A stretch of 64,000 nucleotides of DNA from a virus. The stretch lies in IMG/VR virus record IMGVR_UViG_3300030110_003594, positions 55,869 to 119,868 of that record, one strand, 5' to 3'. Shown piece after piece: positions 2,052 through 64,000 of this stretch; the first letter of the stretch is position 1; the number at the start of each line of letters is the position of its first letter. The notes beneath the pieces are model-generated. The model searched no databases. It was not told the DNA's origin and saw nothing but the letters and a program-made list of their open reading frames with translations. The translations under genes and the position numbers were made by a program.

Positions 2052-5000
2052 TATCTAAAAGATGCATTAATTTTTGTATTAGCTAATTTTAATATCATTT
2101 TTCTATCAGCAGATATATTTTTTCTAAGTATAACTTTATTCCAGTAATGTCTAAATTTCTTACGTTGTAGCTCTGGTTTATTATAATCTAAGTTTGCTTG
2201 ATTTAAATCTTTTATATAACCATTTAATTGTGTTATAAATATTGGCAGATTCCAGTTAGGATCAAACTCACCTCTATCTCTTGTAATATCCCAGAACTGA
2301 TTAAATCTATATTTCTGTTCTACTTTACTATATAGTATTCTTATCTCATTACCTGTAATAAAAGGGAATTGTGTAATTAAAGGTACATTGTTTTTAGGAT
2401 CTAGTGTTAATGCAAGTTCCCCTGATACTTGTTCAGTGTTGTGTATTATTGCATGATCAAAATTCCAATCTAAATCATGGAATCTATCACCACAATTATC
2501 ATCTAAGTTTCCTCTATAGATATAAGATTCTAATTGATACTCTACACTTCTAATTGTATTAACAGTTTGACCTACAGCTTCAACCCATTCTATTTCCCAT
2601 GGATAATTTTCTCCATAATAGTTTGCATATAAATCACATCTATCATTATGTTTCCATATACCACCTTTTGTAAATGTTCCATCTAAACAACATTCATAAT
2701 CATAATGACACATTTTAGGATTAGAGTTAACCCATAAAGGATCTCCAACACCTGTGGTTGTATTATACCATTTTGCTATACCATTCATAATATCTGAAGG
2801 ACATATTCCTGTTGTTGTTACAGGTATTGATGGAAATGGTAATTGAGTTGGATCACATTCACATTCCATTTTTCTACATACACCATTTTTACCCTCAACT
2901 ACACAACTTTCATTTAATCCTAAAACTTGATGAGGAGGTGCTGTACCATCTGTTAATTGAGTTATTCTTTCGTATCCTGCAGGACATGAACATACTGGAG
3001 GTAATGTACATAAATTATTAGCTAATGTAGTTGCAAAATCAGTAACAGTAGCTGGAGTTAAACTTAAGTTTTGATAATTTGTATCACCAGCTGTTACTAT
3101 ATCAAAATCAGCCTGATTAGCAGTTCCAGTTGGATGACAATATAATCCCCAGCTTTCTGAAGAAATAGTTGCTAATCCTGCAGTCTCAGCTGCATTAGCA
3201 TAACCAACATTAAAACCAGGATTATTTGGATTTCCACTTGCATCATTATTAGGAAAGCTTGAAGGCATAGCTCCTTGTAAAGATTGATAATATTGAGAAG
3301 CGTGAGCTCCACCACCATTATCACCACCATCTGCCATTATAATACAAATACGTTTATAAGCTGAATGATCTGTTCTATCTCCTAAAGTAGAATTAAGTAC
3401 ACCAGATAACTGTTGTTGTGCATCATCAAATGCACAAAAGAAACCAGTAGTACCACCATCACCTGGTATATAATCACTTCCCCAAGTTGTTGAAACTGTA
3501 TAATTAGACATATTTACTTCACCCTCAAGTACCCCTCCTGATCCATCTGGAGATGGTGTATGGTTATAATAATCACCACAACTATCCCATGAAGCTAATC
3601 CTATTTGAACATCTCCACTATCCATATCAGTTTTAAATGCCAATACAAAATCATCAACAAAACTTCTAAAATGGTGTAGAAAATCTTCTGTAGAACCTGA
3701 TTTATCAATAGCAAGTACAATATCTAATTGACAATCAAGTTGCTCTATATAAAATTCAACAGGTACTTCATCAACAATTACATCTGCTTCATAACTACCT
3801 TGAAATACTTGACAACATGTTTGTGTTGATGGATTCCAAGTAAAGCCAGGAGGACAATTTGGTTCAGCCTCAAGATCTTCATAACTATTAGTTGTGAAGA
3901 AATGATTTAAACTTGGTATCATTAATTCAGGATGCCAATCGTGGAATGACATCCAAGCTTCATATTTAGGATCATAACTTATTGTCCATGATACATCTTC
4001 AAAATATGTTTCATCTTGTAATGAAACTGGCGTTGTATTATCTAACATTTCAACAGGAGCATATTCTCTACATTCACACATATATTGTCCAGCAGAATTT
4101 GTTATTAAATCACATGTAGGATCTGCACATGAATATGTTGGTGGAGGTGTTACATCATCTATTATTTCAGTTGCTACAGCTATTATATCTGCAACATCTG
4201 CAAAAGCTCCTCCATATGCATTACCAGAATTTGCAAATTCTTCACCATAATTTAAATGTAGATTTGTTGGAGCATTACCACCTGGATCAACAACAACTGA
4301 ATAACTTTTTTGAGCATATGGTGCATTCATATAATCAGGATTATTTAATACATTAGTATTAAACCATGTACATTCATAATCACCTACACTCCAAGTAGTA
4401 GTTGTAGTTGGATCACCTGGCCAAACAACATCAGGAGTTAATGGACTTACACTCATTCCTTTGTATATATCAGTACCTGTAATACCAGCTTCACTATATG
4501 AACTACTTACATAAGATATACCTGGACCTCCGTTTGCTTGTAATATTGAAATACTACCTTCAGCTACTTGACCTCCATCAAATAATGAAATTAAAACTTT
4601 AGGAACTGATCTAGAACCTGTTCCATATAATAAATTTTGTCCATTCCATACTCCTCCTAATATATCTGTTCCATAAGGATTGTCATCACCTTGACCTAAA
4701 CCTGTAGAAGTTGATACTCCTCTATCTGCTGCTATTCCATATGTAGATGTTACATCAGGTTGATAACCTGTATTAGCACCATTCCAATCAAATGTTATTC
4801 CTGGTGTACCAACCCATTGATTAATAAGTGTCATATCACTAGTTAATTCTTGTTGTTCTCCCCAATTCATAAAAGTATCCGGAGAAGAACAATCTGGACA
4901 ATTACCTGGATTGTTACAATCTGCTGATGTTTGACCATGATCTGACATTGGAATATCTGAACATCTACCACCACCAAAATGAGTTAATCCAATTCTAATG

Positions 5001-8000
5001 TTTCCACTTCCTATTTGAGTTGCTAATTGGTCAATCATTACTTTTATAAAATTCTGCATATTACCAATATTATTATTGCTATCTACAGAATTTGATGCAT
5101 CAACTACAAATACAATATCTACTTGACCACCTTCTTGATCTTCTATTGCAGGATATAAATTTATTTTTTCACACTCTTCACCAACAGGATTTCCAGGATT
5201 ATATGTAAATCCATCTGGACAACAAGGAGTTGCAGGAACATTATTACAAGCCGTATTATTATAAACAAATCCTTCACATGGAACAAAATCTATACATTCT
5301 GGTAATATACAATTATAATCTTTTTTACTAAAATATATTAAATCATAATTTGGATCATATACTGATTGACATCCAATTCCTGCAACAGGATTATCTACCC
5401 AGTTATTACAACCTTCCATTCCAGGATATTGGTTTAAAAGAAAAGATGGTAAGTATTTATTAAACCATTGTTTCATTCCTTTATTAGCAATATTTTCTAA
5501 AGATTGTCCATTATATTTAAATACTTTTCCTTGAGCTTGAGATATATAAAATAATCCAGATGGTGTATTAATAACACTTCTTGCACTTTCACATGATCCA
5601 TATTCATATGATATATCTGTATTTACTACATTTTGCATAGGTTGACTAAATAAACCACCATCACCTATTGTAAGTTTAGTTCCTAGATCTGTTTGTAATT
5701 GATCTACTCCTTGCCACATTGCTGGTGCAAGGTTTGGAAATAATATCATTGCACCACTTTTAGATACTGGTTTAATTACATTAACTCTATTTTTAAAGTC
5801 TTTATAATTTAACGGTAAGAACACTCTCCAAAAATCTTTTTTAGCTTCAAGTTGTGCTTGTAATGAATATATAAGTCTTTTAGGATAATGCCTATAACAT
5901 TTTTCTGATACTAATGGATCATAATCTTTTGGTTGAATAAATCCAAAAGATATTAATTGACTAAAAAATCTACCTTTACTTAATGAAGAATCATATTTAT
6001 AAAAATTATCTTTTCTTATAATATCAGCATCAAATAATGCTTCTACATCTGTATACTCTAACCAATCATAATGTCTTTTTTCATCTACATCTTCCCAATC
6101 TCTTAATGCTACATTAATAGTTGATTCAACAAAAAACTCATTAACACCATTACAATGAGTATACATATATCCATTTTTAATATGAAATATAGAACTACTT
6201 CCTGTAGGCATATTAGGTGCAACTTGATTAGGAGCAGCAGTATTAACTGGTCCACTTGCTGTTGCATCTTCATCTTCACTACTTGAAGAACCAGATGAAG
6301 AACCTCCATCATCATCAGCTAAATCACCACCCGGTCTATCTAAAAAATATAAACCGCTAGGCATAGCTCCTGCTAATCCACCAGGAGTTGAACCTGTTAA
6401 AAAACTAAGATTTGTTATTTGTCTTACCATTTCTGATAATTCAAATTTCTTAGTATCCATCCAATAGATAGGACGTGGAACATTAGATCTTAATTTATAA
6501 TCATATGCAAACATATCTGGTTGACCTTTTAGAAAGTCCCAGAAGAATGGCATTATTACTTTTTCTGAATATCTATTTAAATAACAATCTCCTCCATATA
6601 TTGTAGGAGTTGTAAATCTATTAGCATTATTTATTTCACTTCCTGTTAACGGATCTGTTATAATTTCATATGTCCATGGTATAATTTCTCCACTTGAATT
6701 ATATCTTCTTTGATCTTCAAAATATGATATACATCCTGAAGGAACTTGTTTTATTTGATCTAATTGACCATACTGATTTTTAAATGCAACTTTTAATGCA
6801 GTATAATGTGCAGCTATATTTGCTTGTCTATATTGTCCAGGATTCCACCATCCACTAAAGTTACCTATAATAAATTTAGAGTTATCCATTTCTCCAACAG
6901 GTGCTGGAAAATCTGCTTCTCCAGTTGTAATTGTATTTATACAAACTGTCTTAGGTCTTTGTAAATTATTAACTCTTACATTTGCTGTTAAATTTTGCAT
7001 TGATGAACCAACATATCTAGCTTTATTAACTAATTGTCTAAATGGTGACCATCCGTCTCTTTGTTGTGTTGCCCAATATAATCCATGCCCACTATATTTC
7101 CATGCATAATCTTGCATGCTAACTAAATTATATATCATATCTATTACTACTTGTCCACCTTCTGCTGTAAATGACATAAATTGATACAAACCAAATACAA
7201 GTTGTGCTAATGATGGAAGAGCTTCAAATCTAGCTCCTTCAAATTCTACTGATGTATTTGGACCAACATGTCCAGCTGTTGCTGCTGCAGCTGCATTTTC
7301 TTCTGTTGCAAATAAAGGTTCATAGAAAAATCTTTGTGCCATCTTTGGTGCACCTACAACTGTTGATGCACTCAATACACTTTCATTAGCATTCATTCCT
7401 GCAAGTGTAGCTAAATTACCTGTTAACATAAGACCAGCATTAGCTGCTGCTGCAGCAGTAACTGCCCCAAATCCAGGAGCCATACCTGTAAGTGTTGGTT
7501 CAGGAATTTGAATTACTTCATTTGCAGTAACAAGAGTATAAATATATTCTGCTGCAGTTGCAAAAATAACACTACCTTCAAGATATGTTACAGCACCAGT
7601 AATACCTCCAAGATGCGTGTCTAAACTATATGGACCTCCTTCTCGTCCTATTGATAATGATCTTGCTCCATCCATTTTGGTATTACGTTTACCACGCATT
7701 TCTCCAATAGCATAACCAGCACCTACAAATATTGCAATCCACATACATACATTTCTAAGAAGTTTATTTTGTGGATGTTTTTCAGATGGTTTAAATCTAC
7801 CTAAAGAAGTACCTGTAACCATTCCATATGTTTTTAATTCATACGGAGATAAGAAAGGTTTATTAAAGGATGTTTCTGGTGAATGAAAAGTAAATAAATT
7901 TGTTGCTGTATATCCTGCAGAATATGGAGTATCAGCTTGTCTATTACCGTTAGCAACATATGAAAAAGTATTACTACCTGATAAATAAGGATCTGAATTA

Positions 8001-9985
8001 CAATCATTAAAAGGATAATTTGGTATAAATCCTTGTGTTCCTACAGTTTCATGACCTTGTGCGTTAGGAGGTAAATCATATCTTCTCATGTTTCTTGCTA
8101 AACCTTTTGCTATAATAGATTTATTACCTTCTCTTGAGCCAATTAATATTTCATATCCTACTATATTTGGAATAAGATTTCCTGTTGGTCTTCCATCTTC
8201 TGGGCCGCACTCTTCATCTGTTGATGCATTAAATCTTGGCCATGAAATATTCATAAATTTAACACCTAATACATTTATAAATTGATTTGGATTACCATCT
8301 GCATCTCCAGAACTTCTATCAAGATAATGATTATTTGATACTGTAACATCTGAATCTCCATCAATTAATTCTGTCCATGCTGTTGATTCATCAGGAAATT
8401 TATGATGTCTTATTGGTTTACCACAAAGATCATGGTCTGGACTACCTGTGTTTGAATTCCATCTTGTAGGATCTTGAGGGTATCTTTCTGTAGATTCCCA
8501 ATATCCCATATGACCTTCTCTAACAACTATTCCTCCATCTTCTGTTCGTTCAGCATCTTCAATATCAATATTCCAACCATTATCAGCAGTGTTGTGAACT
8601 TCAAATAATCTATCACCTTCATACGGTCCTATTTCACCATTTTGTACCCATGCTGCTGTACCTAAATCATTATTGCCAGGCCAAGGGTCTAATACATTAG
8701 GATTTGCTCCTGCACCATCTTGTATACCTGACCAGTTATAAGGAGCTCTTCCTGGAATATGATATGATGAAGATTTTTCACCTGTATTATAAACAAACCT
8801 AATAAAGAAAGAATAAACTTCATCTCTCATAAATGTAGGTTTATTTCCTCCTTTTGCATAGTAATCAGATGGAAATTGTGTAACAGTCCAATGTGTATGA
8901 ATCTGATTAGCTAAAGGTTGATAATTAAAATCAAATTGTTCAGTTGGACCTTGCCTTACTAAATAATCATTAACAACATACATTTTATCTGTTCTTTCAT
9001 ATGCTGGTGTTGTTATTGGTAATGACTCAACTGGAATTGTTTTTAATTTTTGATTTATATAATCAATATTTATATGTGTTTGTTCTGTACTATAAAAACC
9101 TAATTGTTTTGCTTGCTGTTCACCTTGATTAAAACTACAAACTACCAATTGATAATATTCAAAATTTTTATCTAAATTACTTATATTAACATCTAATCCT
9201 GATAACATGTCTTCATGATCAAATAATGGTTGTACATTTGACATACCATAATAATCACCAACTACTTGATCATTTATAACATATGCAATAAATATTTGAT
9301 ATGATCCATTTCTTAATTGTCCACCATCTGGTGATTTAGATAATTTAATACATGGAATATCAACTAATGGTGCTAATCTTATTCTTTCACAGTCAAGACA
9401 TAATGGTTGTATATCTTCATAAATTACACAATCAGCACCTTCATCTGAAATAACTTTTCTATGCCAAGGTATATTATCTAAATTTAAAGTTCTAGATGGA
9501 TTTACAGCGTCATCCCAATATATCTGCCAAGTACAATCAAAGTTTTCTTTTGCTGCTCCTGTTATTAAATGTTGTGTATTAAAGTTTAAACAAGGTGTAT
9601 ATACTGGAGTTGAATTTGGAAATTGATCTGAACATTGATAACAACTATAATCATTTACCAATGTTTCATATTTACATTCACTATCATCCCATGTACCTAT
9701 TTCACTTTGTTCATTATTAGTTGAAAATAAAACCCATTTATCTCCATATAAATGAATAGCTCCAATAATTGTAAAAGGTGCTGAAGAACATTGTTTATTT
9801 GCTGGTTCATTTCCTAATGTACCTATATCACCATCTTTAGAATTATTAATAGCATTTCTAGCATGAGTCCATTGATCCTTTCCTACTAAACTAGCATTGG
9901 GATCAGTGGTCATCCCTTTAACAAATATATCCGTATCTATATTTGTAGTATTTTGAGGTTGTGGTGTATTCTGCTTTTCAGCCAT
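2051..9985 (-). CDS. Tail muzzle/stabilization protein (crAss muzzle, P22 gp10-like) with two inserted vWA domains
   Basis: 2644 aa. crAss-type segments (FMRDEVYSFFIRF, SWTISYDP, WMSFHDWHP, GIWKHN). MIDAS motifs DASNS and DKSGS. Follows the ring genes. Confidence 0.75.
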   Translation of the reverse strand: MAEKQNTPQPQNTTNIDTDIFVKGMTTDPNASLVGKDQWTHARNAINNSKDGDIGTLGNEPANKQCSSAPFTIIGAIHLYGDKWVLFSTNNEQSEIGTWDDSECKYETLVNDYSCYQCSDQFPNSTPVYTPCLNFNTQHLITGAAKENFDCTWQIYWDDAVNPSRTLNLDNIPWHRKVISDEGADCVIYEDIQPLCLDCERIRLAPLVDIPCIKLSKSPDGGQLRNGSYQIFIAYVINDQVVGDYYGMSNVQPLFDHEDMLSGLDVNISNLDKNFEYYQLVVCSFNQGEQQAKQLGFYSTEQTHINIDYINQKLKTIPVESLPITTPAYERTDKMYVVNDYLVRQGPTEQFDFNYQPLANQIHTHWTVTQFPSDYYAKGGNKPTFMRDEVYSFFIRFVYNTGEKSSSYHIPGRAPYNWSGIQDGAGANPNVLDPWPGNNDLGTAAWVQNGEIGPYEGDRLFEVHNTADNGWNIDIEDAERTEDGGIVVREGHMGYWESTERYPQDPTRWNSNTGSPDHDLCGKPIRHHKFPDESTAWTELIDGDSDVTVSNNHYLDRSSGDADGNPNQFINVLGVKFMNISWPRFNASTDEECGPEDGRPTGNLIPNIVGYEILIGSREGNKSIIAKGLARNMRRYDLPPNAQGHETVGTQGFIPNYPFNDCNSDPYLSGSNTFSYVANGNRQADTPYSAGYTATNLFTFHSPETSFNKPFLSPYELKTYGMVTGTSLGRFKPSEKHPQNKLLRNVCMWIAIFVGAGYAIGEMRGKRNTKMDGARSLSIGREGGPYSLDTHLGGITGAVTYLEGSVIFATAAEYIYTLVTANEVIQIPEPTLTGMAPGFGAVTAAAAANAGLMLTGNLATLAGMNANESVLSASTVVGAPKMAQRFFYEPLFATEENAAAAATAGHVGPNTSVEFEGARFEALPSLAQLVFGLYQFMSFTAEGGQVVIDMIYNLVSMQDYAWKYSGHGLYWATQQRDGWSPFRQLVNKARYVGSSMQNLTANVRVNNLQRPKTVCINTITTGEADFPAPVGEMDNSKFIIGNFSGWWNPGQYRQANIAAHYTALKVAFKNQYGQLDQIKQVPSGCISYFEDQRRYNSSGEIIPWTYEIITDPLTGSEINNANRFTTPTIYGGDCYLNRYSEKVIMPFFWDFLKGQPDMFAYDYKLRSNVPRPIYWMDTKKFELSEMVRQITNLSFLTGSTPGGLAGAMPSGLYFLDRPGGDLADDDGGSSSGSSSSEDEDATASGPVNTAAPNQVAPNMPTGSSSIFHIKNGYMYTHCNGVNEFFVESTINVALRDWEDVDEKRHYDWLEYTDVEALFDADIIRKDNFYKYDSSLSKGRFFSQLISFGFIQPKDYDPLVSEKCYRHYPKRLIYSLQAQLEAKKDFWRVFLPLNYKDFKNRVNVIKPVSKSGAMILFPNLAPAMWQGVDQLQTDLGTKLTIGDGGLFSQPMQNVVNTDISYEYGSCESARSVINTPSGLFYISQAQGKVFKYNGQSLENIANKGMKQWFNKYLPSFLLNQYPGMEGCNNWVDNPVAGIGCQSVYDPNYDLIYFSKKDYNCILPECIDFVPCEGFVYNNTACNNVPATPCCPDGFTYNPGNPVGEECEKINLYPAIEDQEGGQVDIVFVVDASNSVDSNNNIGNMQNFIKVMIDQLATQIGSGNIRIGLTHFGGGRCSDIPMSDHGQTSADCNNPGNCPDCSSPDTFMNWGEQQELTSDMTLINQWVGTPGITFDWNGANTGYQPDVTSTYGIAADRGVSTSTGLGQGDDNPYGTDILGGVWNGQNLLYGTGSRSVPKVLISLFDGGQVAEGSISILQANGGPGISYVSSSYSEAGITGTDIYKGMSVSPLTPDVVWPGDPTTTTTWSVGDYECTWFNTNVLNNPDYMNAPYAQKSYSVVVDPGGNAPTNLHLNYGEEFANSGNAYGGAFADVADIIAVATEIIDDVTPPPTYSCADPTCDLITNSAGQYMCECREYAPVEMLDNTTPVSLQDETYFEDVSWTISYDPKYEAWMSFHDWHPELMIPSLNHFFTTNSYEDLEAEPNCPPGFTWNPSTQTCCQVFQGSYEADVIVDEVPVEFYIEQLDCQLDIVLAIDKSGSTEDFLHHFRSFVDDFVLAFKTDMDSGDVQIGLASWDSCGDYYNHTPSPDGSGGVLEGEVNMSNYTVSTTWGSDYIPGDGGTTGFFCAFDDAQQQLSGVLNSTLGDRTDHSAYKRICIIMADGGDNGGGAHASQYYQSLQGAMPSSFPNNDASGNPNNPGFNVGYANAAETAGLATISSESWGLYCHPTGTANQADFDIVTAGDTNYQNLSLTPATVTDFATTLANNLCTLPPVCSCPAGYERITQLTDGTAPPHQVLGLNESCVVEGKNGVCRKMECECDPTQLPFPSIPVTTTGICPSDIMNGIAKWYNTTTGVGDPLWVNSNPKMCHYDYECCLDGTFTKGGIWKHNDRCDLYANYYGENYPWEIEWVEAVGQTVNTIRSVEYQLESYIYRGNLDDNCGDRFHDLDWNFDHAIIHNTEQVSGELALTLDPKNNVPLITQFPFITGNEIRILYSKVEQKYRFNQFWDITRDRGEFDPNWNLPIFITQLNGYIKDLNQANLDYNKPELQRKKFRHYWNKVILRKNISADRKMILKLANTKINASFR

Positions 9986-37589: not shown

Positions 37590-37747
37590 TATTTTTTCTT
37601 TTTAGACTTGTTGCCCCAATTGGCAGCCCCCACTTTTCTACATCTTACTAGTGCCCCGGATGCATAAGCTGATGGCCATACACTATATCTTGATCTTACT
37701 TTACTATAGCAAGCGTCTCTTTTTGCTTTCTTCTTTTTCTTTGCCAT
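37589..37747 (-). CDS. Small basic protein (52 aa, ...RDACYSKVRSRYSVWPSAYASGALVRCRK...)
   Basis: Translated by hand. TAATG coupling to the next gene. Confidence 0.7.
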   Translation of the reverse strand: MAKKKKKAKRDACYSKVRSRYSVWPSAYASGALVRCRKVGAANWGNKSKKKK

Positions 37748-37757
37748 AATTACTGTT

Positions 37758-38021
37758 TTAACATTTCCAACGTCTACGTGCTTTACAAATTCTTTTATCT
37801 GGAGTTTTACTACAGCTTATATTGTGCATTTTCATTTGACCTCTAGATCTAGCACAATATGATTTCTTACGTTTACCTCCTCCTGGCTGTGGTGCTTTAA
37901 GTTTAGAGCCTGTTTTTTTGTTGATCATTCTACGACCCTTAGCTGTAAGCCCACCTTTTTTACTTTTACAACCATTCTTGATAGAACAGCCTTTCATTGC
38001 ACCTTTATTTTTTCTTGCCAT
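37758..38021 (-). CDS. Small basic protein (GGLTAKGR...SYCARS...RRRWKC)
   Basis: 87 aa, extremely basic. Resembles a family I recall as DUF6321 (unverified). Confidence 0.7.
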   Translation of the reverse strand: MARKNKGAMKGCSIKNGCKSKKGGLTAKGRRMINKKTGSKLKAPQPGGGKRKKSYCARSRGQMKMHNISCSKTPDKRICKARRRWKC

Positions 38022-38024
38022 AAT

Positions 38025-38387
38025 CTATCTTTTTCCACCGTGGTATTCCACGGCATGACCCATTTCTATTAATTTATCATTCACGCAACATTCTTTTTCT
38101 TCTACAACTATATGTAGTTTACCAAGAACTCTTCCAAACTTACCCACCTTCTCACTCTCTATTACAAAATATTTCTCTTCATTTGTTTTTTCCAGTAGAT
38201 CTATTAACGCTTGCTTTGCAGCAAGACCACGTTTCTTTTCTTCTAGATCCCGTGTTCTTGATTCCGGTGTATTGATCCCTGCTAATCTAATTCTCTTATG
38301 AACTGTAATATCAAACCCCAGGTCAATGATGGCATCTAAGGTATCCCCATCAACCACTCTATCTAGTTTTGCTTTATAAACGTACAT
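38025..38387 (-). CDS. Thermonuclease (SNase-like)
   Basis: RVVDGDT, IRLAGINTPE and KFGRVLG. Confidence 0.9.
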   Translation of the reverse strand: MYVYKAKLDRVVDGDTLDAIIDLGFDITVHKRIRLAGINTPESRTRDLEEKKRGLAAKQALIDLLEKTNEEKYFVIESEKVGKFGRVLGKLHIVVEEKECCVNDKLIEMGHAVEYHGGKR

Positions 38388-38715
38388 CTGGTATTATCTC
38401 TTTTAATTCATTATCTATTTCCGTCTTGTTGATTATATCACGGATCTTAGCACATTTCTCATACTCCTCTTGTTCCACGAAGTAACCCATCATATTTTCC
38501 AACGTTTCTATTGACGGCTCTTCTTCCGGTTTATGAGCCATGAGAGCACTCATACCATTTCCTGTTTTCTCATCCATTAAATCTTGAAACTTTTTTTCTT
38601 TTGTTATTATCATGAATGAATTTCTGAATGCCGTGTCCACTATTAGATCCTCTAGTTCTAATCTCTGTGCATACGTTAATCCATTAAATTCATCCTCATT
38701 ATATTCTTCTGACAT
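38374..38715 (-). CDS. Acidic protein with UvrB/C-like motif
   Basis: EEYEKCAKIRD matches the UVR hairpin. Confidence 0.6.
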   Translation of the reverse strand: MSEEYNEDEFNGLTYAQRLELEDLIVDTAFRNSFMIITKEKKFQDLMDEKTGNGMSALMAHKPEEEPSIETLENMMGYFVEQEEYEKCAKIRDIINKTEIDNELKEIIPDVRL

Positions 38716-38877
38716 AATTAATTATTTTTTGGTGAGCACTATTTAATTTGGTTCCTTTTTGTAAAGGATTTATATACCCAATATACAAAAAATTTTTGGG
38801 TAATTAAAATGTTTTATGTGTCAAGTGCTTGAAACCTTCTAACTATCAGCTCCCCGGTTTACTCTTGACGTGTTGTC

Positions 38878-38898
38878 ACCCCCTGTAATATCAGGGGT
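38878..38898. promoter_or_regulatory. GC-rich hairpin at the strand-switch point
   Basis: CCCCTG-TAATAT-CAGGGG, ending about 27 nt upstream of the first plus-strand ATG. Confidence 0.45.
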
Positions 38899-38924
38899 AA
38901 TTTTAACCTTAAAAAATTTTTATT

Positions 38925-39215
38925 ATGAAAAATGTTTTTTTCCACAAGATAGTAAACAATACTATCGTTGTAAAGAGTCAACCATTGTCAGTCACTAAGA
39001 CTGAAATCAATGGTGTACAAGTGTTCACAAGAGAACAAGGTCAGGTGACCTATGGTCTATTGTGTCTCCTTGATGACAAGGGTAATTCCCTTGACCCTTC
39101 TTCACTTGGTCTTAAATTAAACCAAGAGATGAAAGGATTCCGTTTCTCTGAGTCTCCAGTCCTTGACCAAGAGACTAATGAAGAAACTGGAATGTATTGG
39201 GTGGAGTCTTATTAA
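38925..39215 (+). CDS. First early gene, hypothetical (96 aa, no alanine)
   Basis: ATG with an AT-rich leader. A hairpin covers the stop. Confidence 0.75.
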   Translation: MKNVFFHKIVNNTIVVKSQPLSVTKTEINGVQVFTREQGQVTYGLLCLLDDKGNSLDPSSLGLKLNQEMKGFRFSESPVLDQETNEETGMYWVESY

Positions 39216-39690
39216 AGACTTCTCCTAATCCTTAAAGACTGATTATACTTACCTGTATAATAAACTCACTCAAACTATGAATACATACTGACTGTGAAGA
39301 ATCAACTCTATCTTGACTGATATGAGTTCATCCACCATAAGATATGTATTCATACTGTGGGTTACATCCACATCCACAACCATTATGGTTACACAACCAT
39401 GATAAATGAAAAGAATGTGGTTAAAAAAATTAAAATGTGTGTTAATTTGTGAGAGTGTGGTCAATTATACCACAAAACACCACTTATTACCACATTGACA
39501 ACTGTTATTGACAGTAATATATAATATAGCTATCATGAGAGTAATGAACATAGGATGAGTAGAAATACAATTGTCTACCTATAATATGATCTCCTTGACA
39601 TACTCTTATGTATAGTTATTATGTTATCTCTCTATAGGATGAGAGTATTAATCACCGTAACATTAATAAAATCCAGTGGATAATACTGGT
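39200..39690. other. Non-coding hairpin-dense region (possible ncRNA, origin or ssDNA signals)
   Basis: At least 8 inverted repeats, including the perfect 12-bp TATGAATACATA/TATGTATTCATA pair. Confidence 0.5.
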
Positions 39691-39698
39691 ATAATAAA

Positions 39699-39920
39699 TT
39701 GAACAAAGAAAAAAAATTTACATCTTATGATTCACAAGGACCAACAGATTTTGATATTGTTGGATTCCATTCAGATACAATAGAAGACATATTAAAACTA
39801 ATAGATTTATTACAAATACTAAAGTTTGAATCTTTAACTATACCATCTGAAAAACTAGATGAGATAAAACATTACACATTAAAGTTACAAAGATATGTAG
39901 ATCCATCTATAAAACAGTAA
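39699..39920 (+). CDS. Early hypothetical protein (no alanine)
   Basis: 73 aa, TTG start. Confidence 0.5.
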   Translation: MNKEKKFTSYDSQGPTDFDIVGFHSDTIEDILKLIDLLQILKFESLTIPSEKLDEIKHYTLKLQRYVDPSIKQ

Positions 39921-39961
39921 AACAACTCACTTAAATTATTAATCAATTAAATTAAACTGAC

Positions 39962-40315
39962 ATGAAAAAATTCATTAAATATAGTATCCTTAACGTATTG
40001 GGAAGAGATATTATGATTCACATCGTATTACCTGTATCAATGGTAGTATTAGGAATATTAGGTTACACTTGTAATTTACATACTGATCATTATATGATAG
40101 GTATGTTTAGTACATTAGTAGTTGCACTTGGAACAATAAACTATTTCAATTACACATCGTATCCAAAAAATCACAGAATGGAACTCCACTTTGAGTGGTT
40201 ACCAGTATTTGGTTTAGGAATAGTATTTGATAAAATGGTTGGTATTATACTACCATTTTGTATGATTGGAATAAACTTTAGTAATTTGTATAACTATAAA
40301 CGTAAATTAATATGA
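39962..40315 (+). CDS. Early membrane protein
   Basis: 117 aa with 3-4 hydrophobic segments. Confidence 0.65.
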   Translation: MKKFIKYSILNVLGRDIMIHIVLPVSMVVLGILGYTCNLHTDHYMIGMFSTLVVALGTINYFNYTSYPKNHRMELHFEWLPVFGLGIVFDKMVGIILPFCMIGINFSNLYNYKRKLI

Positions 40316-40560
40316 AAAAAATAAAAGAAATGGTGGCACCTGTGAAGATATTCATGAGTGTCATCGTCTCAGTTTTACTGGGATTAGGAACTGTAACGGT
40401 ATTAATTCCTGTTACATATCTATACAATATAGATATTGATACAGCAAGAATGATATACCTAATGATTACAATAGTATATTTTATATCAACAATTTTATAT
40501 GTATTCAATTTTAAATTGATGTATGAAAGATATAAATATAATAAAACACGTGGAAAATGA
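40312..40560 (+). CDS. Early two-TM membrane protein
   Basis: 82 aa, ATGA coupling on both sides. Confidence 0.65.
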   Translation: MKKIKEMVAPVKIFMSVIVSVLLGLGTVTVLIPVTYLYNIDIDTARMIYLMITIVYFISTILYVFNFKLMYERYKYNKTRGK

Positions 40561-41168
40561 TAGAGGTTATTAAGAGGTTATTTAATAATGAGAAGGAGGA
40601 TACTAATCTTCCTTCTCTTTCTAATCTAGATCAGAGTGGAGCGTGGAATATGGAAAATCTAAAATTACAAGTTGATGATGAAAAGGAAGGAATTAATATG
40701 AAAAGAATTATGACATTTGAAAATGGTAAATTATTTAGAGGTCATGGTGGTGGTATTCATAAAATAGGAAATTCATTATCACTTGTAAATTGTTACTGGA
40801 CGGATGTAGTTGTACAAAACTATTGTACAAAAACTAATGTAACTAACACTGAATATAGTGTAGATTCTGGTAGTCATCCAAAATATATAAGAAAAATTAT
40901 GGATAATTTAAATCATGATTATTATAAATTTGAATTGGATGATGTTACTATAAATGTTTATGATTGGTCAATTAGAGTTACTAAAAAAGTTAAATATGAT
41001 GGATTAGAGTTTAAAGATCATTGGGATAATATCAATGAACTTAAACAATTAAGATTTTTTATAAGGAGAATTAAAGATGTAATGAAAAATCACCATAATA
41101 TATTTGATAAAATAGGTAAATTAAATAATGACAGAAATTGTGTAATAATAAATGATCTAAACATATGA
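40557..41168 (+). CDS. Early hypothetical protein
   Basis: 203 aa, ATGA-coupled, with a single Ala. Confidence 0.7.
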   Translation: MIEVIKRLFNNEKEDTNLPSLSNLDQSGAWNMENLKLQVDDEKEGINMKRIMTFENGKLFRGHGGGIHKIGNSLSLVNCYWTDVVVQNYCTKTNVTNTEYSVDSGSHPKYIRKIMDNLNHDYYKFELDDVTINVYDWSIRVTKKVKYDGLEFKDHWDNINELKQLRFFIRRIKDVMKNHHNIFDKIGKLNNDRNCVIINDLNI

Positions 41169-41269
41169 TAGATAAAAGAAGATACAGAAATGCAATGATA
41201 GGAGCAGCAGTAGGATATGTAGGATTAATATTAACACTTGTAGTTATAATAATAATGGCTCAATTGTGA
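41165..41269 (+). CDS. 34-aa single-TM peptide (MIDKRRYRNAMIGAAVGYVGLILTLVVIIIMAQL)
   Basis: Translated by hand. ATGA overlap with the upstream stop. Confidence 0.5.
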   Translation: MIDKRRYRNAMIGAAVGYVGLILTLVVIIIMAQL

Positions 41270-41350
41270 CCTACATAACAACACAAGTATATTTTATTAG
41301 ATATACTTGTATTAGATTTAGTAGTCAGTATGATTATTAAGTTTGAGTGA

Positions 41351-41398
41351 GAGGAAATAAGGAAGTGGTATTAAGTTATCACTTCCTATTTCTATTTT
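41351..41398 (+). terminator. Hairpin/terminator
   Basis: GAAATAAGGAAGTGGTA...TATCACTTCCTATTTC stem followed by T-rich sequence. Confidence 0.55.
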
Positions 41399-41423
41399 AT
41401 TAACCAAAACAAGTATTACGGCT

Positions 41424-41651
41424 ATGGCAGAATTACAATATAATGAATTATTTAATTGGTGTGTTGAACTATTATTATGGTTAGCATACATGACAGGAAC
41501 TACATATGAAGAGATAAATGTGATAATATTTATAATTGTTGGACCAATTATCTTCTCATTATTAGTAATGTATTCAATATTTATAACATATAAATACCAA
41601 CAACTTAAAAAGGATCTAGACTTAGATGATGGAGGATTATATAAAATGTAA
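41424..41651 (+). CDS. Small membrane protein
   Basis: GTTYEEINVIIF followed by a TM helix. Confidence 0.65.
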   Translation: MAELQYNELFNWCVELLLWLAYMTGTTYEEINVIIFIIVGPIIFSLLVMYSIFITYKYQQLKKDLDLDDGGLYKM

Positions 41652-41653
41652 AT

Positions 41654-41806
41654 ATGGAAGACTTAAAAGAAAAATATAAACCAGAAGTTTTAAAGACAGT
41701 TGGTCAACCCAAACCTAATTGGTTATATAAACCAGAGGTTAAACCAAGGATTTGGGTTACCAAAGAGTCTTTGAAACATCTTAAAAAAAATAAAAAAAAT
41801 GTTTAA
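41654..41806 (+). CDS. 50-aa basic hypothetical protein
   Basis: Translated by hand (MEDLKEKYKPEV...YKPEVKP...). Fills the gap between ORFs. Confidence 0.45.
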   Translation: MEDLKEKYKPEVLKTVGQPKPNWLYKPEVKPRIWVTKESLKHLKKNKKNV

Positions 41807-42032
41807 AGAATTATTAAAATGGTTAGGTGCTTACTATTTGGTGTTATTAGGAGCAGGAATTATGTTATGTATGACATCATGTGGAATGAGCCAATTAACT
41901 ATTCAACAACAAAGAGATCTAATAAAAATAGATAGGGAATTAAGTGAACTATGGAATGATTATGAATACGCATCTGATAGTTTATGGATTGAAAGAGATA
42001 AAATATTAAAATCTAATAAAATTAAGAAATAA
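41799..42032 (+). CDS. Putative lipoprotein
   Basis: Hydrophobic N-terminus ending in MTSC (lipobox-like). Confidence 0.55.
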   Translation: MFKELLKWLGAYYLVLLGAGIMLCMTSCGMSQLTIQQQRDLIKIDRELSELWNDYEYASDSLWIERDKILKSNKIKK

Positions 42033-42250
42033 TGGCAAAGAAAATAAATGAAGTGTGGTATGCATATAATGCAAAGGGACAAAAAATACCACCATATAAG
42101 AGTACTTATACAGATCGTGGTCCTAAAACCTTAATAGGTAAAATGTGGAAAGTATATAAACAAAACTGGATTGAATTAACAGTAACATTTATAGTTGGAA
42201 TTTTAATACTTAGTGCATTAATGTATGGATTTTTACAATTAATCTCATGA
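42032..42250 (+). CDS. Small membrane protein
   Basis: C-terminal TM helix. Confidence 0.6.
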   Translation: MAKKINEVWYAYNAKGQKIPPYKSTYTDRGPKTLIGKMWKVYKQNWIELTVTFIVGILILSALMYGFLQLIS

Positions 42251-42723
42251 GTAGGAATATAACACTTGATGATAATAAAATTAAATTATTAATCAAGAAA
42301 ATATTCAGTAAAGATTATAAAGATACAGTAATTGTTGATGCATTAGTTAAAATGTTAGGTGATTCATCTTTAGATATGTTAATACATATTATGTTTAACA
42401 CTGATTATAAACTTTTAGAAGTTGGTGATATTGTAAAGTTTAAACCTGGTAAGTATGATTATGAAAATCATGATAAAGATATTATGATTGATAAAGGTAT
42501 TATGTCTAAAGATGGATTTATGTATGGTGAAATAATAGGTGACAGTGGATATGGTGATGATTTTAATCCAACTCATTATAAAATGAAAGTTTGTGTTTTT
42601 TTATGTGATGGAGATCAAATAATAATGAAAGATAATGAAGTAAAAACATTAGATTGTATAAAAATTGATCCAAATAATATAAAATATAATAAATTAATGA
42701 ATATTTATAATGAAAAAGTTTAG
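42247..42723 (+). CDS. Hypothetical protein
   Basis: 158 aa, coupled to its neighbours. Confidence 0.65.
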   Translation: MSRNITLDDNKIKLLIKKIFSKDYKDTVIVDALVKMLGDSSLDMLIHIMFNTDYKLLEVGDIVKFKPGKYDYENHDKDIMIDKGIMSKDGFMYGEIIGDSGYGDDFNPTHYKMKVCVFLCDGDQIIMKDNEVKTLDCIKIDPNNIKYNKLMNIYNEKV

Positions 42724-42958
42724 GTTTGGTATAGTATCGTATGATGTAATTAGTGATCCAGAATTATCAAGAAATGCAAAAGCAATTTATACTGTATTAG
42801 CAGTACATTGTAACAAAGAACGTACTTGTTTTCCTTCAAATAGTACTATGGCTGATTTACTTAATGTTAGTTATAGTACTATTAAAAGGGGAATAAAAGA
42901 ATTAAAACAAGCAAAGTGTATAACAAGAGATGGTAAAATAATAAAATTAATCAAATGA
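42710..42958 (+). CDS. Winged HTH DNA-binding protein
   Basis: LSRNAKAIYTVL, FPSNSTMADLLNVSYSTIKRGIKEL. Confidence 0.8.
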   Translation: MKKFRFGIVSYDVISDPELSRNAKAIYTVLAVHCNKERTCFPSNSTMADLLNVSYSTIKRGIKELKQAKCITRDGKIIKLIK

Positions 42959-43566
42959 AAAAAATAATTAAATCAGTTGGCTTCTTTATATTAGGAGCAT
43001 TAAGTATAACAATATGGTATGGTTGTGAAACAATGACAGTTAATGAACCTACTACGTGTCTAATATATGGTGACACAAGAGAATTAACAGATACAGTATA
43101 TTTATATGACAATGGAAGACATGTAGATATAATATTAGATGAAGGAAATGGAAGATTTGCAGGATTTGGATGGGGATCAGAAACATTTTATTTAAAAGTT
43201 CCAACTTGGGATGATTTAACATATAGAGCAGTTTACAATGCAACAAAGAAAAATAATAAAACATTAATGCATGTAAAAGAAAATCTTATAAAATCTGAAG
43301 ATTGGGTAGCTATACCTGTTACTGAAGAACAAGTTGATGAATTATGGGATAATATATTTAGATCATTTGATCTAGATAGTGTTGGTAAATTAAAATTTGT
43401 ACAAAATGGATATGGTGAACATGATAAATTTTATAAAGCAAAAGGATCCTATAGTTTAAACTATACTTGCAATAGTTGGGCTAATGATATGTTGAAAAAA
43501 AGTGGCATTTATGCAAGAAAACACGCAATATTTAGTGAAGAAGTAATAGATATTCATAGAAAATAA
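42955..43566 (+). CDS. DUF2459-like exported protein
   Basis: Signal/lipobox-like N-terminus, NGRHVDIIL, FGWGSETFY, YSLNYTCNSW. Confidence 0.65.
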   Translation: MKKIIKSVGFFILGALSITIWYGCETMTVNEPTTCLIYGDTRELTDTVYLYDNGRHVDIILDEGNGRFAGFGWGSETFYLKVPTWDDLTYRAVYNATKKNNKTLMHVKENLIKSEDWVAIPVTEEQVDELWDNIFRSFDLDSVGKLKFVQNGYGEHDKFYKAKGSYSLNYTCNSWANDMLKKSGIYARKHAIFSEEVIDIHRK

Positions 43567-62104: not shown

Positions 62105-64000
62105 ATGAATCATTGGATAATGGATTATGAAACTTTGTCAAATTGTTTTGTAGCTGTATTCAAACATTACAAAACAGATGAGACACATATATTTTCTGTA
62201 TGTTCATTACAGAATGATTATGAAAAATTTTCAGAATTCCTAAAACAAAATGTTGAAAATAATGAATGGCACATATCCTATAATGGATTAGCATTTGATG
62301 CTCAAATAACTCATAATATAATAAAAGATCATGAGAATCTAATGTTAATGGACGGAGAAAGTGCAGCAGAAGAAATATATAGTTATGCTCAAGAAGCAAT
62401 TAAAAGATCTAGCAATAAAGAATTTCAAACTTTTGCTGAATGGCATATGACTATTAAACAAATAGATGTTTTTAAACTTAATCATTGGGATAATATGGCT
62501 AAGTTATCTAGTTTAAAGTGGATACAATATAGTATGGATTGGGAAAATATTATTGATATGCCTCTAGAACATACTACAAAAATAGATAAACAAGAACAGT
62601 TAGATTTAATTATTAAATATTGTATTAATGATGTTGAGTCAACAAAAGAAATTTTTGAAAGATCAAAACCATTAATAGCTTTAAGAAAAAACTTAACAAA
62701 TCAATATAATATAAATCTTTATAATGCATCTGAACCAAGGATTAGTAAAGAGTTATTTGCTTATTACTTAAGTAAAGAACTAAGTATACCTAAATATGAT
62801 CTTAAAAAATTAAGAACTTTTAGAAATGTTATTAAGATTAAAGATCTTATACTTGATTATATTAAGTTTGAGACACCTGAATTTAATAATTTACTTGAAA
62901 AATTTAAAACAGTAGAAATTAATCCTAATCAAACAAAAGGTGGATTTAAATATAATGTGAAGTATAAAGGAGTGAAAACACACTTTGGATTAGGCGGTGC
63001 TCACGGAGCAATGCAGCCAGGAGTGTATGAGTCTGATAATGAGAACGTTATAATGTCTTCAGATGTTGCCAGTTTTTATCCTAACTTAGCAATTATGAAT
63101 AAAATTTCACCTGCACATTTAGATAAGAAAGCATTCTGTCATCTATATGAATGGTTTTTCACAGAAAGAAAAAAGATTCCTAAAAGTGATCCTATGAATT
63201 ATGTATATAAGATTATTCTTAATAGTACGTATGGTCTTTCTAATGATAAAAACTCATTTTTATATGATCCTCAGTTTACTATGTTCATTACAGTTAATGG
63301 ACAGCTTACTTTGATGATGCTATATGAAATGATTATGGAAGCAATTCCTGAAGCAACACCTTTGTTACAAAATACAGATGGTGTTGAGACAATTATACCT
63401 AGATCTAAAATTGATTTATATATGGAAGTATGTAAGAAATGGGAAGAAATAACTAATCTTGTTCTTGAACATGATCAATATAAAAAATTAATATTAGCAG
63501 ATGTAAACAACTATATAGCAATTGATAATAATGGTAAAGCAAAATGTAAGGGACGTTTTGAATTTGAAAACTTGGCCCTTCATAAGAATAAGTCTAAACT
63601 TATTATACCAAAAGCTATATACGCCTACTTTGTTGATGGTACTTTACCAGAAGATACACTTAAAAATAATAATAATATACTTGATTATTGTATAGGTGGT
63701 AAATCTAAAGGTAACTGGAAACAAGTTGCTAGGTATATAAAAGATGGCAAAGGTCATGAAGATGAACTCCAAAAAATAAATAGATATTTTATTTCAAATA
63801 ATGGTGTTAAGATAATTAAAGTTAATAAAAATGATAACCGGGAAATACAGTTAGAATCAGGTAGATGGATGCAAACAATCTATAATGATACTAAAGTAAA
63901 AAAATGGGGATCATATGATATTAATGAAAAATATTATCTTGATGCAATAGAGAAAGAAATCAATAATATTATAGGAATTAAGTCTAATCAACTATTGCTA
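62105..64000 (+). CDS. Family B DNA polymerase, truncated by window edge
   Basis: Translated by hand: exonuclease MDYE, SYNGLAFD, YCINDV; polymerase SSDVASFYPN, KIILNSTYG, QNTDG. Confidence 0.92.
   Translation, partial: MNHWIMDYETLSNCFVAVFKHYKTDETHIFSVCSLQNDYEKFSEFLKQNVENNEWHISYNGLAFDAQITHNIIKDHENLMLMDGESAAEEIYSYAQEAIKRSSNKEFQTFAEWHMTIKQIDVFKLNHWDNMAKLSSLKWIQYSMDWENIIDMPLEHTTKIDKQEQLDLIIKYCINDVESTKEIFERSKPLIALRKNLTNQYNINLYNASEPRISKELFAYYLSKELSIPKYDLKKLRTFRNVIKIKDLILDYIKFETPEFNNLLEKFKTVEINPNQTKGGFKYNVKYKGVKTHFGLGGAHGAMQPGVYESDNENVIMSSDVASFYPNLAIMNKISPAHLDKKAFCHLYEWFFTERKKIPKSDPMNYVYKIILNSTYGLSNDKNSFLYDPQFTMFITVNGQLTLMMLYEMIMEAIPEATPLLQNTDGVETIIPRSKIDLYMEVCKKWEEITNLVLEHDQYKKLILADVNNYIAIDNNGKAKCKGRFEFENLALHKNKSKLIIPKAIYAYFVDGTLPEDTLKNNNNILDYCIGGKSKGNWKQVARYIKDGKGHEDELQKINRYFISNNGVKIIKVNKNDNREIQLESGRWMQTIYNDTKVKKWGSYDINEKYYLDAIEKEINNIIGIKSNQLLL

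Follow-up and report, generated by a model that had tools for sequence, protein, structure and literature searches.

A nearly GpC-free leader at the putative early-module head of a crAss-like marine phage

The DNA considered here is a window of 64,000 nucleotides, positions 55869-119868 of the 119,868-bp virus record IMGVR_UViG_3300030110_003594, which CheckV rates as complete. Between window positions 38851 and 41191 it contains a sharply bounded stretch, the GpC void, in which 5 GpC dinucleotides are observed against 47.07 expected from base composition (observed/expected ratio, o/e, 0.106; Poisson P = 8e-15). The best reading, at somewhat below an even chance, is that the stretch forms an immediate-early module in which selection suppresses GpC, allowing escape from a GC-reading host factor. 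Purifying selection at the nucleotide level, which would keep the module nearly GpC-free at the cost of alanine (Ala), is favoured over other causes because the edges are sharp, shared and placed at functional landmarks, because five survivors are conserved, because the replacements of alanine are varied, and because no C5 or N4/N6 methyltransferase family was found in the phage records.

38851-41191, no strand assigned: GpC void, 5 GpC in 2341 bp, o/e 0.11

Extent and nucleotide-level nature of the void

Within the void, only positions 39529, 40124, 40336, 40444 and 40641 carry a GpC, and the nearest ones outside it lie at 38827 and 38849 on the left and at 41192 on the right. The three longest GpC-free gaps of the entire 119,868-bp record (680, 595 and 551 bp) lie side by side here, and sliding windows of 2341 bp over the whole record reach their minimum o/e of 0.13 at the void, compared with a 5th percentile of 0.75, a median of 1.07 and a genome-wide ratio of 1.04. 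No other dinucleotide has a similar local hole, the next lowest minimum being 0.55 for GG, with the exception of CpG, which is low everywhere (0.18). Furthermore, among words of 3-4 bases without GC, none is similarly depleted in the void, the strongest shortfall being that of AAG (41 vs 69).

A preliminary description of this DNA, made from the sequence by eye, had reported the same feature. All of its GpC counts and positions are reproduced, as are the sharp edge at the strand switch, with GpC at 38827 and 38849 just before it, the alanine counts of the encoded proteins (0, 0, 1, 2 and 1 for the 96-, 73-, 117-, 82- and 203-aa proteins; aa, amino acids), and the persistence of CpG (14) and GATC (6) inside the void. 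The void likewise stands out from the genome-wide distribution of windows, its minimum of 0.13 lying below the 5th percentile, and recurs at the same place in relatives, more weakly. One detail needed correction: the GpC at 39529, which had been assigned to the motif GATAGCTATA, lies in the palindrome ATAGCTAT, within a promoter-like spacer.

Five open reading frames (ORFs) occupy the void:

38925-39215, plus strand: first early gene, with 0 GpC; encodes a small, conserved, all-beta protein of 96 aa with 0 Ala
39699-39920, plus strand: 73-aa ORF with TTG start, 0 Ala, acidic (net charge -3)
39962-40315, plus strand: 117-aa ORF, 1 Ala; Kyte-Doolittle 19-mers of at least 1.6 at residues 12-39 and 79-106
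40312-40560, plus strand: 82-aa ORF, 2 Ala; two hydrophobic stretches
40557-41168, plus strand: 203-aa ORF of no known family, 1 Ala; AlphaFold2 pLDDT 76

In the whole genome, 80% of coding GpC consists of alanine codons (56.9 per 1000 codons, vs 4.3 at codon positions 2-3 and 9.9 at positions 3-1). Across the 571 codons of the five void ORFs, alanine codons number 4 against 18.8 expected from position-specific composition, and GpC is missing altogether from codon positions 2-3 (0 vs 6.0) and 3-1 (0 vs 8.7); the corresponding o/e values in all other ORFs are 0.90, 0.77 and 0.99. The three non-coding pieces of the void hold 1 GpC against 13.8 expected, the span 39216-39961, which includes the 73-aa TTG-start ORF, holds 1 against 14.7, and intergenic DNA elsewhere in the genome holds 84 against 82.6 (o/e 1.02). 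Poisson P values for the individual GpC classes in the void range from 2e-4 to 2e-6. Since codon positions 2-3, positions 3-1 and non-coding GpC are all depleted too, alanine avoidance by the proteins is not the cause; the loss of alanine is a consequence of GpC depletion acting on DNA or RNA, not on protein. The earlier statement that coding and non-coding DNA are both covered thus extends to all GpC classes.

Constraint in a sister strain and recurrence among relatives

The sister strain L117, a 3336-nt metagenome contig, is 93% identical to the window across 37652-39536 and 87% identical across 39913-41267. Its void has identical edges (38849 and 41192), and four of the five surviving GpC are common to both. 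Over the 2024 void columns that align, 177 substitutions separate the two, 102 of them transitions, with only 4 GpC differences, all of them extra GpC in L117. When 177 substitutions were placed at random, keeping the observed proportion of transitions, 18 gains arose on average over 5000 simulations, and 4 or fewer in at most 0.02% (P <= 0.0002). In the flank at 37652-38850, 87 substitutions are accompanied by 8 GpC differences vs 13.5 simulated gains and losses, a shortfall that is partly due to protein constraint because this control is coding, a caveat that holds less strongly for the void. Moreover, none of the 29 synonymous differences between the window and L117 creates a GpC, against 2.6-2.9 expected, which constitutes a weak test (P about 0.05). 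As judged from these comparisons, the void is maintained by ongoing constraint.

A TerL search of IMG/VR returned 596 relatives, and the analysis retained the 80 best loci among them. In the first kilobase of the leader, GpC counts (observed/expected) rise from 1/27 in the window through 7/23 in L003, 11/32 in L030, 12/31 in G001 and 15/30 in G004 to 22/30 in L025, 25/33 in G005, 31/36 in G003, 31/35 in L094 and 34/35 in L092, and exceed expectation in L080 (36/27), L081 (40/33) and L073 (42/33). In 2-kb windows, the genome minimum of GpC o/e falls at the early leader in all four complete genomes examined, at 0.12 in the window genome and at 0.55-0.65 in G001, G004 and G005; in 1-kb windows it does so in three of the four, the leader of G004 ranking second.

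The first gene itself carries 0 GpC of 10.5 expected in the window vs 11 of 12 in L092, and 1 of 11.4 in L030 vs 8 of 12.4 in L086; because depleted and undepleted members alternate in this way within first-gene subfamilies, a repeated, lineage-specific pressure is favoured. A TerL tree of 14 rows joins the window to G001 as its sister (GpC ratios 0.04 and 0.37); a second clade ranges over 0.33-0.75, three rows stand near 0.9 and the outgroup at 1.15-1.32, the depletion being confined to two ingroup clades and absent from the outgroup. No GpC trough occurs at the corresponding switch of phage phi14:2, where 500-bp bins at 98001-100001 have an o/e of at least 1. CpG o/e is 0.11-0.29 in the best 80 related loci and 0.46 in phi14:2, compared with 0.18 in the window genome. 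The part of the leader at 39897-41250, a cassette of genes, has no homologue in G001, whose homology resumes at 41250-41398 (83%).

Avoidance of short sites also occurs at the scale of whole genomes in this clade. TCGA is found 0-1 times in each of four genomes of about 120 kb (G000, G001, G004 and G005), and CCGG is absent from G004 and G005 (11-13 expected), with 39 and 34 occurrences in G000 and G001. Such counts point to lineage-specific, whole-genome restriction-site avoidance.

Several candidate explanations found no support. Genome-wide avoidance of GC-core palindromes was ruled out, as AGCT (510/501, observed/expected) and TGCA (597/605) stand at expectation in the rest of the genome. 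A strand-specific target left no sign: GCA/GCT and AGC/TGC in the survivors and in partly depleted relatives follow the baseline; the sense-strand GCA:GCT ratio among survivors is 3:1 in the window and 7:1 in L117, with an early-module baseline of 225:117. Phage-encoded GpC methylation was discarded, the methyltransferase families PF00145 (C5) and PF01555 (N4/N6) being absent from 5/5 phage records and detected in control genomes, with other modification families not searched. Finally, a leader designed for easy melting was dismissed because G+C content is above average in its first 700 bp (36% in 39001-39500 vs a genome mean of 30%).

Measured against the early module on the same strand, the void is short of 44 GC and gains AC (+30), GT (+27), GG (+12), CC (+8), GA (+6) and TC (+4), and valine is raised 1.61-fold in its proteins. 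At the 11 positions where G001 has a GpC, the window reads GT in 5, AC in 3, and GC, TT and TC in one each. This spectrum does not decide between decay by deamination and selection, because ordinary substitutions are transition-rich as well (102/177). At positions where relatives have alanine in an alignment of 13 first-gene homologues, the window has glutamine, aspartate, serine, leucine or valine, not only valine or threonine.

Leader architecture and source genome

Minus-strand genes, among them those for the major head protein, portal and large terminase, extend up to 38715, and plus-strand genes from 38925 on include those for a helicase, an HNH endonuclease and the DNA polymerase. From the gene layout on either side, the void lies at a divergent switch between a structural and a replication module. 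In phi14:2, the replication module forms the early class and is transcribed by an injected virion RNA polymerase (10.1101/2020.03.07.982082). The control elements, the downstream limit and a further GpC-poor patch are as follows:

38757-38856, plus strand: conserved intergenic DNA of the divergent switch, ending in the box GCTCCCCGG (38848-38856)
38880-38897, plus strand: hairpin CCCCTG-TAATAT-CAGGGG, a terminator-like site between the box and the first gene
39216-39698, plus strand: non-coding stretch of 480 bp with two near-consensus sigma-70-like promoters, 39508-39536 and 39595-39622
41165-41269, plus strand: hydrophobic ORF of 34 aa that overlaps the 203-aa gene's stop (ATGA); Ala-codon GpC at 41192, 41204, 41207 and 41258
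41360-41387, plus strand: terminator-like hairpin about 170 bp beyond the right edge, where G001 homology resumes
42247-42776, plus strand: second, weaker GpC-poor patch encoding a 158-aa protein with 1 Ala; GpC-free gap of 436 bp at 42340-42776

The last GpC before the void (38849) is the GC of the box GCTCCCCGG itself. The box, which precedes the first early ATG by about 75 nt, has the core GCTCCC in all 14 relatives that reach the site and GCTCCCC in 13 of them, and the pattern GCTCCCC[AG]G occurs a single time in the 119,868-bp record. Blocks conserved across the clade in 38757-38900 comprise a TCCTTT..AAAGGA palindrome, ATACAAAAAATTTTTGGG, the GCTCCCC box and the ACCCCC hairpin, and are candidate early-promoter, packaging or origin signals. 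In relatives, a hairpin around the ACCCCC motif appears to be retained with altered stem letters, according to an alignment read by eye. In run X3, a contig of an abundant relative loses its match to the window at 38884, which suggests that the box is also a recombination joint in the population.

Each of the two promoter-like sites matches 11 of 12 positions, and a stricter pattern finds both of them and, in the whole 120-kb genome, just one more, which falls within a minus-strand gene; the two would thus be the only near-consensus sigma-70-like promoters on this strand, apart from the one within that gene. The only non-coding GpC of the void (39529) falls within a promoter-like spacer. Identity to G001 reaches 94.6% across 39439-39735 and 96.6% across 39495-39700, compared with 66-73% in the flanking genes (66% in the adjacent gene). 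Within 39439-39735, ATGAGAGTA follows each of the tandem promoter-like sites, and forms present in public runs skip the 75-85 bp between the two copies, with joints from 39533/39543 to 39619. By analogy with phi14:2, for which abundant early non-coding RNA has been reported (10.1101/2020.03.07.982082), this region may be the source of such an RNA. A search of Rfam with 38600-41600 gave no match, and a search with a 31-nt promoter word found it in G001 only.

The 96-aa first protein was aligned with 13 homologues from related loci and modelled by AlphaFold2 with a pLDDT of 93. Structural comparison of this model with VIA-align places S1/OB domains in the top 20 or so rows (root-mean-square deviation 2.4-3.6, 59-69 residues aligned), at Z scores of 4.8-6.0 that lie below the tool's trust level of 8; the protein is possibly an S1/OB-like nucleic-acid binder. 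Foldseek against PDB returned nothing at E <= 0.001 for the 96-aa or the 203-aa model, tblastn of the 96-aa protein against INPHARED phages gave no match, and BFVD contains one uncharacterised relative, from Virus NIOZ-UU157. Between the window and L117, only 1 of its 96 residues differs, with 2 letters changed in residue-changing and 10 in residue-keeping codons.

The genes that follow behave differently by the same count. Comparing the window (39962-41168) with L117 (2072-3237), letters in residue-changing vs residue-keeping codons number 18/6 for the 117-aa, 14/3 for the 82-aa and 43/10 for the 203-aa gene, a ratio of about 3-5 to 1 that gives a rough sign of fast or diversifying protein change. 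At the place of the 73-aa ORF, L117 has no ATG-start ORF of at least 60 aa. The 203-aa protein has five database homologues that are 47-85% identical, each with 0-2 alanines; a search of viral_contigs gave nothing, and one of metagenome_contigs gave one locus (L117). Its model bears a weak resemblance to YbjN/type-III-chaperone-like folds (Z 6.4, TM < 0.5), and the ESM Atlas provided no usable feature match for the leader proteins (TM < 0.5 by structure). At the right edge, the first GpCs past the void are alanine codons of the 34-aa ORF, which places this edge within a coupled gene pair. Beyond it, 41192-42776 holds 16 GpC vs 23 expected, and the 436-bp gap of the second patch is the fourth longest GpC-free gap of the genome. 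Further downstream, a 203-aa early protein encoded at 42955-43566 has a strong DUF2459 match (4e-33).

Marker genes and sampling sites indicate that the phage is marine and crAss-like. Genes of crAss type in the window are recognised by PHROG for TerL (1e-61), portal (3e-93) and major head protein (1e-32), TerL being 24-26% identical to that of any cultured crAss-like phage or of Flavobacterium phages, and a large structural gene is typical in its domains:

2051-9985, minus strand: 2644-aa protein with the Crassvirus muzzle domain PF25731 crAss_MUZ (8e-23) and a von Willebrand A domain

The public runs that contain the void stretch (20 listed) are marine, seawater, sponge or aquatic metagenomes. 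All 20 consist of assembled contigs, and the four compared show no molecule ends: X2 contains an identical sequence, X3 and X6 contain variants a few per cent apart, and contigs of the RNA run X20 cover 12 of 30 bins, none convincingly within the void, from which no inference is drawn. The frame of the DNA polymerase (polB; 62105-64000) stays open across the junction of the record ends, giving 668 aa with a stop 102 nt into the record start, and it follows that the record is a circular permutation (a trimmed circular assembly) with ends that are not physical. No terminal overlap of 11-200 nt exists between the record ends, and the crAss001 record, which is annotated as circular, has no terminal-repeat feature within its first 7 kb.

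To the left of the switch, an endonuclease gene at 38025-38387 on the minus strand (PHROG 452, 2e-40) is 73% identical in DNA to genes of the cyanophages P-RSM4 and S-TIM4, and local CpG o/e is 0.65-0.83 across 38001-39000 vs 0.18 genome-wide. This gene looks like a recent import and perhaps encodes a homing endonuclease.

Selective escape, competing explanations and known systems

The proposed module would begin at the box GCTCCCCGG, continue through the conserved first gene, the promoter-rich non-coding stretch and a fast-changing four-gene cassette, and end about 170 bp before the hairpin. A host factor would recognise the GC step by itself, or a wide range of short words containing it, in the first minutes of infection, when only the leader module would be exposed or needed; after the leader products have been made, the remaining genome with its normal GpC would be protected or past the risk. 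As the agent, a DNA-level nuclease or restriction-like system is favoured, and the logic would be that of the T5 first-step-transfer and Murciavirus first-injected DNA, extended from a recognition site to a dinucleotide. Of the preliminary description, which had proposed first-entering DNA purged of a whole dinucleotide, part stands: the depletion is real, sharp, nucleotide-level, located at the head of the early/replication module, constrained and recurring. A more specific version, in which an immune factor of marine Bacteroidota reads bare GpC in phage DNA or first transcripts, and the 117-, 82- and 203-aa proteins encoded by the GpC-free leader disable it, is rather unlikely; if true, it would point to an unrecognised class of dinucleotide-reading defences and to a 'clean leader' counter-strategy.

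Several observations weigh against selective escape as formulated here. To our knowledge, no nuclease that reads bare GpC has been described, and none of the five leader proteins scores above cut-off against PHROGs, PADLOC or Pfam, where no anti-restriction family was matched. The GpC that persist in the void include single copies of AGCT, TGCA and AGCA, all three conserved in L117, which makes it doubtful that many GC-core restriction enzymes are evaded at once, as had been suggested, and implies that the agent is not an ordinary single 4-bp enzyme cutting at one site. Because GC reads identically on both strands, the data do not tell a reader of DNA from a reader of RNA. Close relatives (G003, L092, L094, L081 and L073), as well as phi14:2, lack any void. 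The right edge lies within a translationally coupled pair, about 170-200 bp before the terminator-like hairpin, and offers no obvious stop for DNA entry. Neither the record nor the contigs show a physical genome end, and the record ends of the related genomes G000-G005 (five records) lie at differing places. Furthermore, crAss-like packaging is varied, with short terminal repeats in crAss001 and headful packaging in crAss002, so that a fixed leading end cannot be assumed (excerpted account in PMC8042965).

Escape might instead take place at the RNA level, which we consider unlikely: the earliest mRNAs would be kept GC-free so as to offer no target to a host enzyme cutting or modifying single-stranded RNA at words of two or three letters, and only those ORFs that need translation under attack would have to be clean. 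Such an origin would suit a right edge that lies inside an operon, just past the 203-aa gene, and is easier to explain by RNA than by DNA entry, a left edge at a conserved box, possibly a mark of transcript initiation, some 75 nt ahead of the first ATG, and a sole non-coding GpC upstream of the presumed start of the promoter-like site. MqsR is a GCU-specific mRNA interferase. A dinucleotide-reading defence that acts on mRNA is known in CmdT, which ADP-ribosylates GA in single-stranded RNA (10.1101/2024.02.24.581662). An RNA target is harder to reconcile with a 480-bp non-coding stretch that is as clean as the genes, with a GCA:GCT ratio of survivors at baseline (225:117) that gives no sign of a strand-specific trinucleotide target, and with the coupled ORF 41165-41269, which would bring four GpC onto the same putative transcript. 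It is improbable that local mutation pressure produced the void, through a fast decay of GpC such as methylation or deamination of cytosine in GC context on single-stranded or first-exposed DNA. Deaminases of double-stranded DNA with GC context do exist, and M.CviPI is a GpC methyltransferase. The loss of 44 GpC is offset chiefly by gains in the two transition products, AC (+30) and GT (+27), the 11 G001 sites have become GT in 5 and AC in 3 cases, and the 1.61-fold rise in valine has the same direction, but the transition excess fits the ordinary spectrum between the window and L117 (102/177). Decay would moreover have to respect sharp edges at functional landmarks common to two strains and to spare five conserved GpC, no C5 or N4/N6 methyltransferase family occurs in the 5/5 phage records, and alanine has been replaced by glutamine, aspartate, serine and leucine in addition to valine.

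Slightly more improbable is a requirement of the phage's own machinery, in which the virion RNA polymerase, ejection or packaging would need a leader free of GC steps, or, in a variant, a leader free of host GC-core methylation that would work after growth in any host. In vitro, the virion RNA polymerase of phi14:2 uses only single-stranded or denatured DNA as its template, and the early promoters of that phage share no common motif in the part of the report drawn on here (10.1101/2020.03.07.982082), while the leader has a conserved box and, after it, a hairpin. Nevertheless, GpC in the first kb stands at 34/35 (L092), 31/35 (L094) and 40/33 (L081) in relatives that share the box, the first gene and the layout, and because such relatives, and phi14:2, have normal GpC, the machinery does not need a void; a G+C content of 36% in 39001-39500, higher than the genome mean of 30%, shows further that easy melting is not the aim. 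Protein-level avoidance of alanine, import from a GpC-poor donor and chance are, taken together, very improbable. They could draw on the facts that 80% of the coding GpC of the genome lies in alanine codons, that the cassette 39897-41250 lacks a G001 homologue, and that alanine is likewise scarce in all five homologues known from databases for the 203-aa protein. We know of no genome with a GpC o/e near 0.1 that could have served as a donor. Coding GpC outside alanine codons is 0 vs about 13 (positions 2-3 and 3-1) and non-coding GpC 1 vs about 14, the G001-homologous part and the non-homologous cassette are both depleted, and the overall P is 8e-15; protein-level or trivial causes are largely refuted.

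On the reading of selective escape, the phage forgoes GpC and nearly all alanine across five genes and 600 bp of control DNA, and does so through about 9% divergence; this cost would imply a strong, two-letter-specific agent acting in the first minutes of infection. We know of no described agent with GpC specificity. Beyond this, the analysis sharply delimits a candidate immediate-early module in a marine crAss-like lineage that is uncultured, and it provides a few genes as candidates for counter-defence, along with a conserved box and promoter set as candidate early signals. Local dinucleotide voids at module heads also constitute a simple signature for genome scans, which could reveal similar conflicts elsewhere.

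Among phages with ordered entry, T7 has three host promoters in its first 750 bp and is drawn in by transcription, and N4 combines hairpin promoters with staged entry. The general layout resembles that of phi14:2, which also has a rightward replication/early and a leftward structural module, long non-coding stretches near the early head and sigma-70-like promoters, and which differs in having no GpC trough at the switch and a CpG o/e of 0.46 vs 0.18 here (layout after 10.1101/2020.03.07.982082). Whole-genome restriction-site avoidance operates in the same clade (TCGA 0-1 in 4/4 genomes, CCGG 0 in 2/4), but concerns 4-bp palindromes genome-wide, whereas GpC is normal genome-wide (1.04) and missing only locally. 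As in vertebrate CpG decay, a self-complementary dinucleotide is lost and both transition products (here AC and GT) are gained; here, unlike there, the loss is limited to 2.3 kb with sharp edges and five conserved sites, and the phage has no PF00145/PF01555 methyltransferase.

With regard to specificity, CmdTAC demonstrates that a defence can read just two letters, although it targets GA, acts on RNA, belongs to E. coli and is triggered late by a capsid protein; in the excerpted text, its authors regard escape through motif loss as implausible (10.1101/2024.02.24.581662). In the present phage a dinucleotide has been removed, but from 2.3 kb only. With regard to location, T5/BF23 are sensitive to restriction only via sites in their first-step-transfer region (PMC10644984), and Murciavirus (Autographiviridae) escapes a type I system if the motif is missing from its first-injected region (PMC12455610), as both sources state in the parts drawn on. 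These phages share with the present one a bounded stretch that heads the early genes, lacks a word common elsewhere and carries variable, small uncharacterised ORFs; they differ in that their words are 4-13-bp sites of identified systems and that their entry order has been measured, whereas here a whole self-complementary dinucleotide is purged and an amino acid is lost with it. A full-text literature search, which did not cover supplements and subscription journals, found no paper on dinucleotide-free early phage genes. Avoidance of recognition sites of at least 4 bp in first-exposed phage DNA is known already; what is given up here is a whole dinucleotide.

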